From: Spirochaetia bacterium
Lineage (GTDB): Bacteria; Spirochaetota; Spirochaetia; SP-2023
DNA length: 64,000 bases
Direction: 5' to 3'
Assembly: GCA_965263295.1 (NCBI GenBank)
Contig: OZ253665.1
Span: 448,001 to 512,000, forward strand
Position numbers and translations under genes: made by a program. How positions within the stretch are numbered: position 1 is the stretch's first letter; each line of letters starts with the position of its first letter. The notes below the pieces were generated by a model. It saw only the letters and a list, made by a program, of their open reading frames with translations, was not told the DNA's origin and searched no databases. Below are positions 8,394 to 17,075 of the stretch, in pieces.

Positions 8394-9149
8394 ATGAAGC
8401 AAGAAATTCACGCTGTAATTTTTGATCTTGATGGAACCCTGGCCAACAGTGAGCCGGTGTATCGCCAGACTGAGCATTGGTTGGCCGAGCATTTGAATGT
8501 CGCGTTTGCAGAGCAAGGCCCTAATGACTTTGTGAGTGTCAGCACGGAAGAATATATGGAGTGCTTGCGTCAGCATCACGAGCTAGATATTCCCACAGAG
8601 GAACTTTGTAAACTGCAGACCCGGCTATTTCTGAAAAAGGGCATTGAAAAAGTGCGGCCTTTCAATCCGACAATTGACTTTTTAAAGTCGCTACATATTA
8701 ACCAGATTCCTAGTGGTCTGGCTTCGGATTCAGAAAAAGAAATCATTCAGGCCATCCTGAGGCAACTGCGCCTTGAACCATATTTTCAGGTGACGCTGTC
8801 TAGCTGTGAAGTCGGCAGTGGCAAGCCTAAGCCGGCTCCTGATGTCTTCTTGGAGTGTGCCCGGCAGCTCAAAATCGCGCCAGGCTTTTGCTTGGTGCTT
8901 GAAGATTCCGTTGTGGGAATGCGGGCGGCGAAGTCTGCGGGTATGGCCGTTATTACGATTGACAGTCAGCCACCGGCCACTAATTCGCGGAAAAATCAGT
9001 ATTTGGCCGAATTGCGCCAGGCCGATTTGCATTTTGCATGTATGGAAGAATTTAACTTAATGCCCATATTGAATCAGTTTGATATCCGGCGTCGCGCAAA
9101 AGGGAACCACGAAATTACACGAAAGGTGGCGAAAGGGCACGAAATTTAG
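8394..9149 (+). CDS. HAD-family phosphatase (beta-PGM/CbbY-like)
   Basis: DLDGTL motif I, KPAPD, LEDS motif IV; the last 14 codons are encoded by the repeat element. Confidence 0.9.
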   Translation: MKQEIHAVIFDLDGTLANSEPVYRQTEHWLAEHLNVAFAEQGPNDFVSVSTEEYMECLRQHHELDIPTEELCKLQTRLFLKKGIEKVRPFNPTIDFLKSLHINQIPSGLASDSEKEIIQAILRQLRLEPYFQVTLSSCEVGSGKPKPAPDVFLECARQLKIAPGFCLVLEDSVVGMRAAKSAGMAVITIDSQPPATNSRKNQYLAELRQADLHFACMEEFNLMPILNQFDIRRRAKGNHEITRKVAKGHEI

Positions 9150-9395
9150 GCTGGGGAGCTGTGGGGGGCACGACGGGGAACTGTAGGCGCCAGGGGAAAG
9201 CAGAAAAGGGGGCCGAATGCACGACGGGAGCTGGGGGGGGCGTCTAGGCAGCAGGCGCGGTGTTTTAGAATTTTTGGTGTCGTTCGTTCTTTTTTGGTGT
9301 ATTTCGTGGTTACGGGGCCAGGGACTGTTAGGGGAGGGACCACGAAAGGGCACGAAATGGAGACGGGGGAACCATAGGGGGCTCGCGGGGCTGCC
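9105..9395. repeat. Modular CACGAAA inverted-repeat element, copy 1
   Basis: Left arm AACCACGAAA-TTACACGAAA-GGTGGCGAAA-GGGCACGAAA (9105-9144), G-rich core, right arm ending TTTCGTGGTT (9311), then a further short left arm (9338-9357). Confidence 0.9.
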
Positions 9396-9428
9396 TTAAA
9401 GCTGTTTACGAGATATAAGAAAAATTTT

Positions 9429-9692
9429 TTATTCATAATGCGTCCACATCCTTATGACTTTAATAATTTTTTCTTCTTGTAATACTTGGTAGACAATCCG
9501 ATGCTGAATGTTGATTCGGCATGAATATGCGCCGGTTAAATCTCCCGCGAGTTTCTCGTAGCGTGGATGTTGGGGAAACGGATTTTCCCGTAGCGCATGC
9601 AATATTTCTTCTGTTTTTGGCTTGAGGTTTGAGCTGGCCAGTTTCTTGGCATCTTTTTGTGCCTGTTTGGTGAATAATAACTGGTACATCAC
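9429..9692 (-). CDS. yoeB: Txe/YoeB-family type II toxin
   Basis: 87 aa; EKLAGDLTGAYSCRINIQHRIVYQV and C-terminal MWTHYE; overlaps the antitoxin by 4 bp. Confidence 0.92.
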   Translation of the reverse strand: MMYQLLFTKQAQKDAKKLASSNLKPKTEEILHALRENPFPQHPRYEKLAGDLTGAYSCRINIQHRIVYQVLQEEKIIKVIRMWTHYE

Positions 9693-14171: not shown

Positions 14172-14403
14172 AGCCCCCTGAACTGAACCACGAAAGGGGA
14201 CCACGAAAAGCACGAAAGAGTAACCACGAAAAGCACGAAAGACGGCGAAAAGTCACGAAATCTAGACAGGTAAGCCGCGGGGGGCACGACGGGAGGCGCG
14301 GTGTTTTAGAATTTTTAGAATTTTCGTGTTGTTCGTACTTTTTTAGTGTTTTTCGTGGTTAAGGGCCAGGGACTCTGTGGGGGGAACGACGGGGAGCTGC
14401 GGG
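14172..14403. repeat. Modular CACGAAA inverted-repeat element, copy 3
   Basis: Expanded left arm with seven CGAAA units (14186-14260); AGGCGCGGTGTTTTAGAATTTTT (14294-14316) identical to 9253-9275; right arm 14321-14360 ending TTTCGTGGTT. Confidence 0.9.
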
Positions 14404-14475
14404 ATCATCACCTTCACAGTTTCATAGCTGAGTTCAGCAGTTATTTTTTAATGTTTATTTAATGTTTATTTAAGG

Positions 14476-16959
14476 ATGCTTATGTCAAAGCAAAAACATG
14501 TCATTATTTTCTTTTGCCTGCGGGCTATCTGGGCGACTATTCTGGCCGGGGCTATATTTAGCTGTGACCTGAATAACGATGGCCGGAAATACGACGGGGA
14601 AAGCAAACTGAGTAAGATTAAGGCCCTAGAAGGCTCTTATACCGCCGCCGCGGACGAAGACGCCATCAGTCTGGAGGCTGACCAGCTGCCCTCTGCTGTT
14701 TCTGTTGCGGAGCTGTTGGGCACGGTAGCGCTGCGAGACATCGGGCTGCAAGACTTTGAATTAGAGCTGCGCGCCGATGATTCCACAGGAACCCTGGTGC
14801 TGACGATCTATCCCGATGGGATTCAGCCCCCCGATGGCCCCAATAACATGGTGGGCATGGTGGTAAAGACCATTCACATTCGGGGGTTCCGGGCGGTGTC
14901 AACCTCGCAGGAATCGACCGCTTCGGGGGTGACTTCGGAGTTAAACGATCAGGTCGCTCAATCTTATGAGGAAGAGGTCCCATCTATGGATATCAGGGCT
15001 CTGGGGCTGGGCTGCACGAAGAGGGCCAGTGAAATTTCCGCGTCCGATTTGCCGTCGGCACTGACCGAGAATCTACAAAACAGTGGACAACGTCTGGAAC
15101 TCTTGCCTCACGACTCTGCCGGCGAGCTCTACCTGCTCTTTTTCTATCAAGATATCCCCGATAAATTGGCAGAGATATATGTGGTAAAAGGTTTTAGAAA
15201 GGGACCAGCTGTAAAGGTAGAATTTTCTCCGAAGCCGAAAAATCTGTACCATACGGGGGATGAACTGCCCATTTCCGTAAAAGTTCAAAACCTGCGGGAG
15301 AATAGCTACCTGAAGCACAAGTATCGAAAATCGGGGGTAATGGCTGACGGACTCCCCGTTTTTATATTCTTGGGGTCAGATTTGCTTGGCGTGCTGGCAT
15401 TCCCCTGGGAGACAAGTGAGACGACGAAGATACCGGAGAGCAGGGTTTATTTTGTGAAAGATATTGAGGACGACCATATCTACGAAAGTTCCTTGACTCT
15501 GGAAACACCTAAGTTTATCGACAAAAGCGAGTTAAAAATTGCGACAAAGGCGTATGAAGTAAGGTATGCCAAGCCACATTATGAAGTGAATTTCCAGTTT
15601 GGCTACAAGATGCATCTGAAAGAAATTATCAAGTTTTTTAATCAACATAATAAAGATGAAACAGGATTAGCCCTTAAAGGGGTTTACGCGGAATACTATC
15701 GGCTCTGCAAAAACTACCGGGGCAAGTACCCGAGCTTGGACCCCAATGGTATAAAAAACGAAACGCTGAAGGAGTACGTAACCAAATGCCAAAAAGAGAT
15801 TGAACAAAAAGAGAAGGAAATAGAAGCTCATAAAAGGCATATTAAAAAGTATGGAAAATTTTATAAAATTAGTAGCCTCTGCTTTAAAGTAATTACTTAT
15901 TTTGAACTTGCATGCTCTGCCGTTTCAGTAGCCGCGACGGGAGGAGCCACTTTGCCCGCCTTTTTAACGTCCTTGGCCATTAATGAGGCAATGTGGATGA
16001 GTGATAACATTACAAAAGATGGCAAAGTTACAAAGGAAGAGGGTTCGGCGGAGGAGCTAGTAGAAGGCCCAGCTTCTGCTCCTCCCCTATGGGGGGAGGT
16101 GGATATATCGCCAGATGGTGGGGCGGACACGATTGTAAACATTCCCGCTTTCAAAGCGCATGAAGGCGGACCAGGGCTAGCTGCATGTTTAGGTTCCGGT
16201 ATTAAAACCGGTACTAAAATAATAAAAAAGGGAACCGAACTGTTCCGTCCGTCCGCCGACCCCCCAGAGCTGAAAAGATTCAAGCCTGTAGGTAAGATGG
16301 TACAAAGCAAGGGATTCAAACGAGGATCTCTAATGAGTACATTTGCCAGCGCTGCTATCAATTTTGCCAGCTTTGCCAAATCAAAAAAAATGGCGAAGAA
16401 AGCCAAACGCCTTCAACAAGAGAAACAGCTCTTGGAATTTGAAAGAAAGATGCTGGAAGATTTGGAAAATGATCACGGGGCTAGAGATACAATAATCGCC
16501 TGTGAAGAAGGCAAGGCTCAGGGTAAAGTAGACCTAAAAGGTGACGAGTTTTGCGTAAACGACTCTTATGAGATGATCAAGGAGGAACTAGATGAAAAAA
16601 TGAAAAATAACAGAGATCCGCTGGACAAGGGATATAGAGGTCGCCTCTACAATATAATGTCATGCCGGTGCAACGGCAAAGAAGAATTTATTTATCAAAC
16701 GATCAAATACGACCACAAAGAGTCGGGAGCGCGGATAAATAATTATGCCGATCATTTTTATAAGTTGAATGAACGCGGAGAAATTATTTACAGAGCTTCG
16801 GGAGAGAAAGTCGACAACGTGCTCGACATGTACGGCGATCATTACCCCGGCCTGGAGCACCGCACGAATGACGAGGTGAGCGCCGAAATCGTGGATTACA
16901 CCAATGAGCTGCTGGATGAGCATCCAGAACCGGTAAACTGCTGGAGCCCCGCCAGCTGA
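14476..16959 (+). CDS. Putative surface lipoprotein with two Lipoprotein_17-like modules and a helical C-terminal region
   Basis: Lipobox IFSC; modules LPSAV...DDSTGTLVLTI...IRGFR and ASEI...HDSAGELYLLF...VKGFR; coiled coils flank a hydrophobic segment. Confidence 0.75.
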   Translation: MLMSKQKHVIIFFCLRAIWATILAGAIFSCDLNNDGRKYDGESKLSKIKALEGSYTAAADEDAISLEADQLPSAVSVAELLGTVALRDIGLQDFELELRADDSTGTLVLTIYPDGIQPPDGPNNMVGMVVKTIHIRGFRAVSTSQESTASGVTSELNDQVAQSYEEEVPSMDIRALGLGCTKRASEISASDLPSALTENLQNSGQRLELLPHDSAGELYLLFFYQDIPDKLAEIYVVKGFRKGPAVKVEFSPKPKNLYHTGDELPISVKVQNLRENSYLKHKYRKSGVMADGLPVFIFLGSDLLGVLAFPWETSETTKIPESRVYFVKDIEDDHIYESSLTLETPKFIDKSELKIATKAYEVRYAKPHYEVNFQFGYKMHLKEIIKFFNQHNKDETGLALKGVYAEYYRLCKNYRGKYPSLDPNGIKNETLKEYVTKCQKEIEQKEKEIEAHKRHIKKYGKFYKISSLCFKVITYFELACSAVSVAATGGATLPAFLTSLAINEAMWMSDNITKDGKVTKEEGSAEELVEGPASAPPLWGEVDISPDGGADTIVNIPAFKAHEGGPGLAACLGSGIKTGTKIIKKGTELFRPSADPPELKRFKPVGKMVQSKGFKRGSLMSTFASAAINFASFAKSKKMAKKAKRLQQEKQLLEFERKMLEDLENDHGARDTIIACEEGKAQGKVDLKGDEFCVNDSYEMIKEELDEKMKNNRDPLDKGYRGRLYNIMSCRCNGKEEFIYQTIKYDHKESGARINNYADHFYKLNERGEIIYRASGEKVDNVLDMYGDHYPGLEHRTNDEVSAEIVDYTNELLDEHPEPVNCWSPAS

Positions 16960-17075
16960 ACCTCGAAAGAGTAACCACGAAAGTGCACGAAGACTACGAA
17001 AGGGCACGAAATCTAGACGGGGGAGCCGCAGGTGGCACGACGGAGAACTGTGGGAGGAACGACGGGCCAGAATCC
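16945..17075. repeat. Modular CACGAAA element, copy 4 (left arm and G-rich core only)
   Basis: CGAAAGAGTAACCACGAAA shared with copy 3; continues GGGCACGAAATCTAGACGGGGGAGCCGC...GGCACGACGG; ends just before the dnaE stop. Confidence 0.88.

Follow-up and report, generated by a model that had tools for sequence, protein, structure and literature searches.

A CACGAA repeat amplified across a Spirochaetia genome shares its arms with GxxExxY nuclease genes and marks the ends of duplicated surface-protein genes

The 64,000-nt stretch of DNA analyzed here (hereafter, the window) corresponds to positions 448,001 to 512,000 of contig OZ253665.1 (C1 where genome coordinates are given) of the Spirochaetia bacterium assembly GCA_965263295.1, and carries, between a HAD hydrolase gene and a convergent gene that we take to be dnaE, a block consisting of a toxin–antitoxin (TA) pair and three lipoprotein-like genes punctuated by a repeat built of CACGAA units. 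This repeat is not confined to the block, being present at 72 loci of the genome; its arms are those found beside GxxExxY nuclease genes, and duplicated DNA, for the most part lipoprotein-like surface-protein genes, ends at its arrays. The reading that seems to fit best, and to which we would give somewhat better than even chances as a whole, is that the repeat would be an amplified, gene-less derivative of a GxxExxY nuclease cassette, i.e., a non-autonomous element whose copies serve as recombination junctions for the copying and swapping of surface genes. The new part is the genome-wide expansion of the repeat tied to surface-gene duplication.

The left arm of the repeat (consensus ACCACGAA, CACGAA, GCGAAA, CACGAAAT.TAG) holds three or four CACGAA-type units, spaced mostly 9 or 10 bp apart in the host genome and with GCGAAA as a variant third unit, and is joined by a G-rich core to an inverted right arm (GTTTTAGAATT, TTTCGTG, TTCGTA, TTTCGTGGTTAC), after which the consensus continues into a GGCCAGGGACT spacer. 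Complete units (n = 64) measure 105–265 bp and stack into mosaic arrays, and their flanks, looked at for target-site duplications, are dominated by the repeat-borne spacer. The 72 loci (71 recovered by BLAST and a remnant at C1:2403868 added by hand) total 22.6 kb, or 0.94% of the 2.41-Mb genome, and none of them lies within an open reading frame (ORF) of more than 200 aa; CACGAAA words number 726 on the two strands, while exact two-unit arms number 157 versus 0 for the reversed pattern. Other repetitive DNA was seen in the same genome: 16 decayed transposase copies (e.g., C1 20800–21400, 107700–108400 and 558560–559400), which we take to be IS5-like and which form a repeat family separate from the CACGAA repeat, and a second non-coding segment of ~200 bp, AT-rich and 92–98% conserved in most copies (C1:557625, 723135, 991544, 1882780, 1913138 and 2083402), that abuts the CACGAA repeat at five of its six places. 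A CRISPR array of ~62 repeats (C1:552966–557033) ends some 250 bp from a CACGAA repeat locus, and no match of its spacers to the repeat or its cargo was found (one 18-nt hit, two spacers).

The host genome has one intact GxxExxY gene (C1:1901341–1901853; TIGR04256, 147 bits), whose protein keeps all 14 residues that are invariant in a 50-sequence alignment, and whose predicted structure (pLDDT 91) is closest to the Cas4 protein SSO0001 (E 2e-4, TM 0.54) and then to lambda-type exonucleases. The probable start is the GTG 111 bp into these coordinates. The gene has a left arm with core on one side and a right arm on the other, and the arrays that flank it, of 2589 bp and 1274 bp, are the longest and the third longest. 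Among the best 80 of 538 GxxExxY relatives, which come from many phyla, a triple-CACGAA arm stands beside all 80 genes (upstream of 70, downstream of 74, on both sides of 64 and on neither side of 0), against a background of 57/1700 control windows and 13/1600 shuffles; the arms of the relatives have three CACGAA units, with a spacing of 9 in 283/295, and AAC/GTT ends. PF13366 is listed with unknown function in PMC3424549, and our literature search, which did not cover subscription journals and supplements, returned nothing on GxxExxY-linked repeats. A distant GxxExxY gene (35% identity) of the congener G002 (C1:410077–413418 of that genome) is preceded by tandem copies of a different repeat of ~110 bp, which suggests that the arm type follows the protein subfamily.

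The copies of the repeat are not scattered at random beside housekeeping genes: the repeat adjoins 16 of the 17 lipoprotein-like genes (a call made by our own lipobox heuristic) that have a paralog of at least 50%, the seventeenth adjoining the hand-added remnant, versus 5 of the 38 that have no such paralog, and, when loci within 10 kb are collapsed into 31 independent clusters, a dispersed paralog adjoins 23 of these, the mean for random intergenic draws being 5.8 and the maximum 14 (5000 draws). Near a repeat are all eight members of a PKD/Ig-domain lipoprotein family, four of five of a Lipoprotein_17-domain family and all three of the family of the third lipoprotein of the block. A MazEF pair is also repeat-bordered, and each of the two copies of a prophage tail-module remnant (C1:723135–729769 and 1913138–1918415) starts at a repeat, and a 1.4-kb repeat array truncates the second. 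At C1:1907142–1912982, eight almost identical genes arranged in tandem encode short coiled-coil membrane proteins, presumably Bdr-like, with a varying number of KRFEQVD-type repeats and a weak CCDC90-like match; the CACGAA repeat stands between each of these genes, and a ninth copy lies 17 kb off (about C1:1929970–1930360). These placements support a tie of the repeat to surface-protein and TA genes.

That the repeats sit at the ends of duplicated DNA is seen from the flanks, 57 of 144 of which recur at a second repeat-bordered locus: with the tandem array set aside, a single flank is shared by 104 directed locus pairs and both flanks by only 2, and therefore the repeats are not passengers within larger duplications. 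Junctions were aligned for 16 hand-picked pairs, 2 of which were dropped as they had no anchor, and in 13 of the remaining 14 the shared run ends inside or at the edge of the repeat, the other one ending ~30 bp past it; as the pairs had been picked for a shared repeat-adjacent flank, only the failure of the similarity to emerge on the far side is informative here.

Exact arms in the host genome and three congeners number 157, 20, 10 and 0, and GxxExxY gene matches 1, 4, 1 and 0, respectively. A GxxExxY gene is present in 42 of 150 further genomes of the class, and the five that have at least four arms (13 at most) all carry it; single arms also occur in class genomes without it. In G002, 8 of the 10 arms stand next to a gene that has a paralog at another of the loci retrieved, mostly of one lipoprotein-like family without a match in the host genome, the ninth adjoins a tandem pair, and the tenth lies by DNA that, on visual inspection, resembles the beginning of a decayed GxxExxY gene, for which there is no Pfam match. 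The 15 arms examined (of 20) in G001 lie in restriction–modification operons or form 60-bp hairpins. A BLAST search of 40 relatives did not recover the full 300-bp repeat, of which the short arm alone was met with in other genomes, and the long arm pattern gave 0 matches in metagenome contigs.

As for how the repeats might come to stand at such ends, we infer that recombination starting in the arrays copies and swaps the neighboring genes: the arrays would act as entry points, at which a nick or resected end in one arm would invade another copy of the repeat, so that copying through the neighboring gene would duplicate, move or replace it and leave a hybrid array at the junction, while the other end would be resolved either in a second repeat or at some other place. 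As the genome carries a ComEC gene, incoming DNA is a possible donor. On weaker grounds, by analogy with SsnA at NTS and RAYT at REP, the GxxExxY protein, with its Cas4/lambda-exonuclease-like fold, may start this recombination by recognizing the arms in trans and acting on them as a nuclease that makes the nick. The farthest-reaching version, that of a domesticated GxxExxY nuclease serving as a surface diversifier, which would cut its own amplified arms in trans and so drive the capture, duplication and allele exchange of lipoprotein, TA and other accessory genes, is offered tentatively, and we would sooner bet against it than for it. Of the first-pass proposal of a repeat-delimited system for surface genes that is acted on in trans, the ends of duplicated segments and a distant candidate enzyme (GxxExxY) have been borne out, whereas the integron-like mode has not.

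A number of observations weigh against the repeats being recombination junctions served by the GxxExxY protein. Junctions fall at many positions in the arms, none of which is fixed; the youngest duplication (2.8 kb, 99.75%) has its far end within a kinase-like gene, where there is no repeat; both flanks are unique at 19 of the 72 loci; 55 of 88 dispersed paralogs are not near any repeat; and neither empty sites nor circles were seen in the assembled contigs, the observed joints lying in repeats or being explained by repeats and paralogs. The proximal 5′ arm of the GxxExxY gene is decayed, and most GxxExxY-bearing genomes of the class have 0–2 of these arms. In G002, a 21-member family supplies most cases, so that one hitchhiking event could explain them, and five of its members have no exact arm nearby. 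There is also a second nuclease-like family, of coiled-coil proteins with a weak YraN/PD-(D/E)XK match, all five genes of which are repeat-bordered, and 45% relatives of which occur near arms in G002; judged by sequence, its product is a second candidate enzyme. The variable junction positions, the decayed arm, the unique-flanked loci and the many paralogs that bear the repeat on one side only would all suit a passive selfish repeat, i.e., a MITE/REPIN-like element that spread once, survives in dispensable regions and promotes duplication only via ordinary RecA homology, for which the identity of about 70–90% among copies is enough, with the nuclease gene no longer mattering. This we consider possible but with the odds against it, as only 2 of the 16 decayed IS5-like loci stand next to a dispersed paralog, the core units of the repeat are kept (mostly at least 90% conserved) while the linkers drift (50–80%), and the nuclease gene, which is intact, stands amid the longest arrays.

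Table 1. Features of the HAD–dnaE block (window positions) and copies of the coiled-coil nuclease-like gene (C1 positions)
Feature	Position	Strand	Remarks
HAD hydrolase, left flank	8394..9149	+	PF13419
Complete element 1	9105..9311	+	Left arm, G-rich core, right arm
Spacer and opening of TA-carrying element	9312..9385	+	GGCCAGGGACT spacer, then left arm with partial core
YoeB/Txe toxin	9429..9692	-	TIGR02116 above cut-off
Phd/YefM antitoxin	9689..9931	-	PF02604, TIGR01552
Closing of TA-carrying element	10012..10116	+	Right arm, spacer, left arm with partial core
AT-rich leader	10133..10392	+	Promoter-like match within
Lipoprotein-like ORF 1	10416..12083	+	555 aa; lipobox-like cysteine, no family
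Lipoprotein-like ORF 2	12105..14171	+	688 aa; lipobox-like cysteine, no family
Repeat 3	14185..14391	+	Extra left-arm units, complete element 14222–14360, spacer, core fragment
Lipoprotein-like ORF 3	14476..16959	+	827 aa; lipobox-like cysteine, no family
Repeat 4	16958..17064	+	Left arm with partial core, without right arm
Presumed dnaE, right flank	17079..20624	-	Orthologs 76–81% in three congeners
Coiled-coil nuclease-like genes	C1:133144–133740, 683002, 731957, 898428, 1453667		Fragment near 422300

Within the block itself (Table 1), the order read at first pass (repeat, TA pair, repeat, two lipoproteins, repeat, lipoprotein, repeat) is real and its coordinates agree, as do its setting between the flanking genes and the lack of a repeat between lipoprotein-like ORFs 1 and 2; AACCACGAAA/TTTCGTGGTT arms occur in the window at the four places of the block only. 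Not all four are whole repeats, however, those at 10058 and 16973 each consisting only of a left arm and a partial core. The TA pair is on the minus strand, as had been said, but rather than standing between two whole repeats it lies inside one element, from a left arm at 9338 to a right arm ending at 10033, and the promoter of its own with which it had been credited was not recovered, as a consensus scan gave no minus-strand match upstream of the antitoxin. The HAD ORF reaches 44 bp into the repeat, its stop codon being repeat-derived, and its congener orthologs align only up to residue 233–237; the left arm of element 1 holds CACGAA/GCGAAA units about 9–10 bp apart, and the 22 bp preceding repeat 4 recur only next to the repeat at C1:422081. 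Searches of Pfam and NCBIfam gave no family for any of the three lipoprotein-like ORFs, the ESM Atlas gave nothing usable for lipoproteins 2 and 3 (matches below 0.9 only for lipoprotein 2), and the likeness between lipoproteins 1 and 3 is faint at most (28 bits). Elsewhere in the window, positions 60383–63898 hold long tandem direct repeats (units of ~345–447 bp and shorter ones), probably within repetitive protein genes.

Part of the history of the block can be read from the leader of lipoprotein 1, which resembles (92%) the opening part of the leader belonging to a lipoprotein 3 paralog (C1:2400837–2401096), the remainder of that paralog leader being matched by window DNA from 14397 on; it follows that ~94 bp of the leader gave way to lipoproteins 1 and 2 together with repeat 3. 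The block would have been built stepwise, with a repeat–leader–lipoprotein 3 unit coming first, lipoproteins 1 and 2 and a repeat then being inserted into the lipoprotein 3 leader, and the TA pair being placed inside the upstream element. Lipoprotein 3 has two dispersed paralogs (58%), both repeat-bordered, and was not found in the three congeners with this query, nor in metagenome contigs. Database relatives of lipoproteins 1 and 3 occur in pairs on contigs of the same length (85% and 96% for one, 38% and 88% for another) and may well be alleles of this locus in other strains; these proteins, apparently from other strains, suggest that the locus persists in divergent allelic forms instead of being reshuffled. 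The lipoprotein 3 alleles are 94–100% alike over residues 50–450 and 36–82% in a block near residues 450–650, and the two paralogs show the same hypervariable block, alleles and paralogs alike being block mosaics. That block (window 15850–16450) encodes a hydrophobic stretch between two charged coiled-coil-like segments.

Two sequencing runs also bear on strain variation: in run X3, from another sample, contig depth was 115–123 at the flanks, 98 at the TA pair, 20–25 at lipoprotein 1, 39 at lipoprotein 2 and 85–186 at lipoprotein 3, and in run X4 lipoprotein 1 had 81 differences in 2030 bases; depths of this kind are a weak measure and give no more than a hint of such variation. The middle of lipoprotein 3 was uncovered in X4, but at a depth of 2–3 this gap is uninformative. 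Joints bridging the entire block were discounted, as their short sides (20–42 letters) fall within repeats, and the joint from 10392 to 14397 is the paralog at C1:2400837–2401191. Comparison of the HAD–dnaE interval for empty sites is uninformative, because gene order differs among all three congeners at five anchors (HAD, dnaE, miaA, rsmD-like and uppP), HAD and dnaE not being neighbors in G001 or G002.

The integron logic initially seen in the block, in which a trans-acting site-specific recombinase would excise gene-plus-repeat circles, insert them at other repeats and build ordered arrays, would account for the direct orientation in 33 of the 36 intervals between neighboring loci no more than 6 kb apart, for the eight-gene tandem array with its genes set apart one by one by repeats, for lipoproteins 1 and 2 and one downstream repeat sitting within the lipoprotein 3 leader, and for the lower depth of these two genes in run X3. 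We nonetheless hold it to be quite unlikely. The complete elements of the window (9105–9311, 207 bp, and 14222–14360, 139 bp) have AAC...GTT ends without RYYYAAC or GTTRRRY, and the attC cores RYYYAAC/GTTRRRY are found in 0 of the 64 complete elements of the genome, which is 92.6% complete by markers; the two tyrosine recombinases score 71 (the best TIGR02249 score) and 67 bits against the IntI cut-off of 265 and have housekeeping surroundings, and no Y1 HUH gene was found (PF01797, 0 matches in the host genome, with matches in 6 of 14 controls). Nor is there a single array, the loci being dispersed at 72 places, and the cargo lies both inside and between elements: in the same 36 intervals (R..F 17, F..R 7, F..F 6, other 6) 17 have it between elements, 7 within an element and 6 between two left arms, with the GxxExxY gene, YefM-YoeB and several lipoproteins being found between a left and a right arm. 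The crossover point is not fixed, and the left junction of the lipoprotein 1–2 insert has no repeat.

An explanation at the RNA level, namely a hairpin kept beside lipoprotein genes as a terminator, stabilizer or insulator and travelling with them, would agree with 27 of 30 lipoprotein–repeat contacts being on the same strand and with the terminal stem closing, in the predicted fold, in 59 of 62 distinct elements on the G-rich strand; on the opposite strand, however, it closes just as often (61/62), many loci carry a single arm that is unable to pair, the coiled-coil nuclease-like genes run antisense to their repeats, and Rfam gave 0 matches. As it would also leave unexplained why shared DNA stops in the repeat, we think it very improbable. 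Of the two complete elements of the window, only the shorter folds better than shuffles (z −3.9 on one strand and −3.7 on the other for the repeat 3 hairpin; z −1.2 for element 1).

No function is known for the widespread GxxExxY proteins, and the host genome offers a natural over-expansion of their arms (157 versus at most 20 in the other genomes searched), in which conserved core and variable linkers define a candidate recognition site, the substrate can be tested with short oligonucleotides, and the genomic outcome is visible as duplicated, mosaic surface-protein genes bordered by the repeat. If the diversifier version were true, it would be a third convergent nuclease–repeat partnership beside RAYT–REP and Ssn–NTS, with a PD-(D/E)XK enzyme, and would give a first role to GxxExxY, a family found across bacteria and archaea; were the protein to cut, it would represent a new class of sequence-specific nucleases and a new route to surface variation.

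Among known systems, the GxxExxY cassette (TIGR04256/PF13366) has the same arm sequence and period, with 0–20 exact arms per genome elsewhere as against 157 here, and the host-genome repeat differs from it by a long G-rich core, by arrays that reach kilobases and by cargo other than the nuclease gene between its arms. Genes separated by related palindromic sites and TA pairs on the opposite strand are shared with chromosomal integrons, those of Treponema included, whereas here no IntI and no attC cores were found, the sites are dispersed over the genome and the cargo is inside as well as between them. In REP/REPIN/BIME systems, a single-copy nuclease gene, RAYT, is likewise flanked by its repeats, which are GTAG/CGTC-tagged short palindromes; gene-less inverted-arm doublets that lie between genes, form hairpins and stack in tandem are common to both, while no Y1 HUH gene was found in the host genome, the consensus has no GTAG/CGTC-tagged short palindrome, and the bias to lipoprotein paralogs is strong. 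In Neisseria, dRS3/NIME arrays are concentrated next to variable surface genes, with recombination end points falling within them (PMC1797815), and the NTS repeats are partnered with SsnA, a GIY-YIG nuclease (PMC11893778). Unlike that gene, the one flanked here encodes a PD-(D/E)XK GxxExxY protein with a Cas4-like fold (an Ssn gene was not searched for); the unit, at 105–265 bp with arms of 9–10 bp periodic sub-units, differs from the 20–28 nt palindrome described there, and the flanked genes here are dispersed paralogs within one genome. Shared with dRS3/NTS/NIME and SsnA are oriented hairpin repeats flanking a small single-domain nuclease gene, and, with NIME in particular, mosaic arrays of arms around variable spacers beside variable surface-protein genes, with end points in the arrays, so that even if the GxxExxY protein does not cut, this would still be a clear NIME-like array system outside Neisseria.

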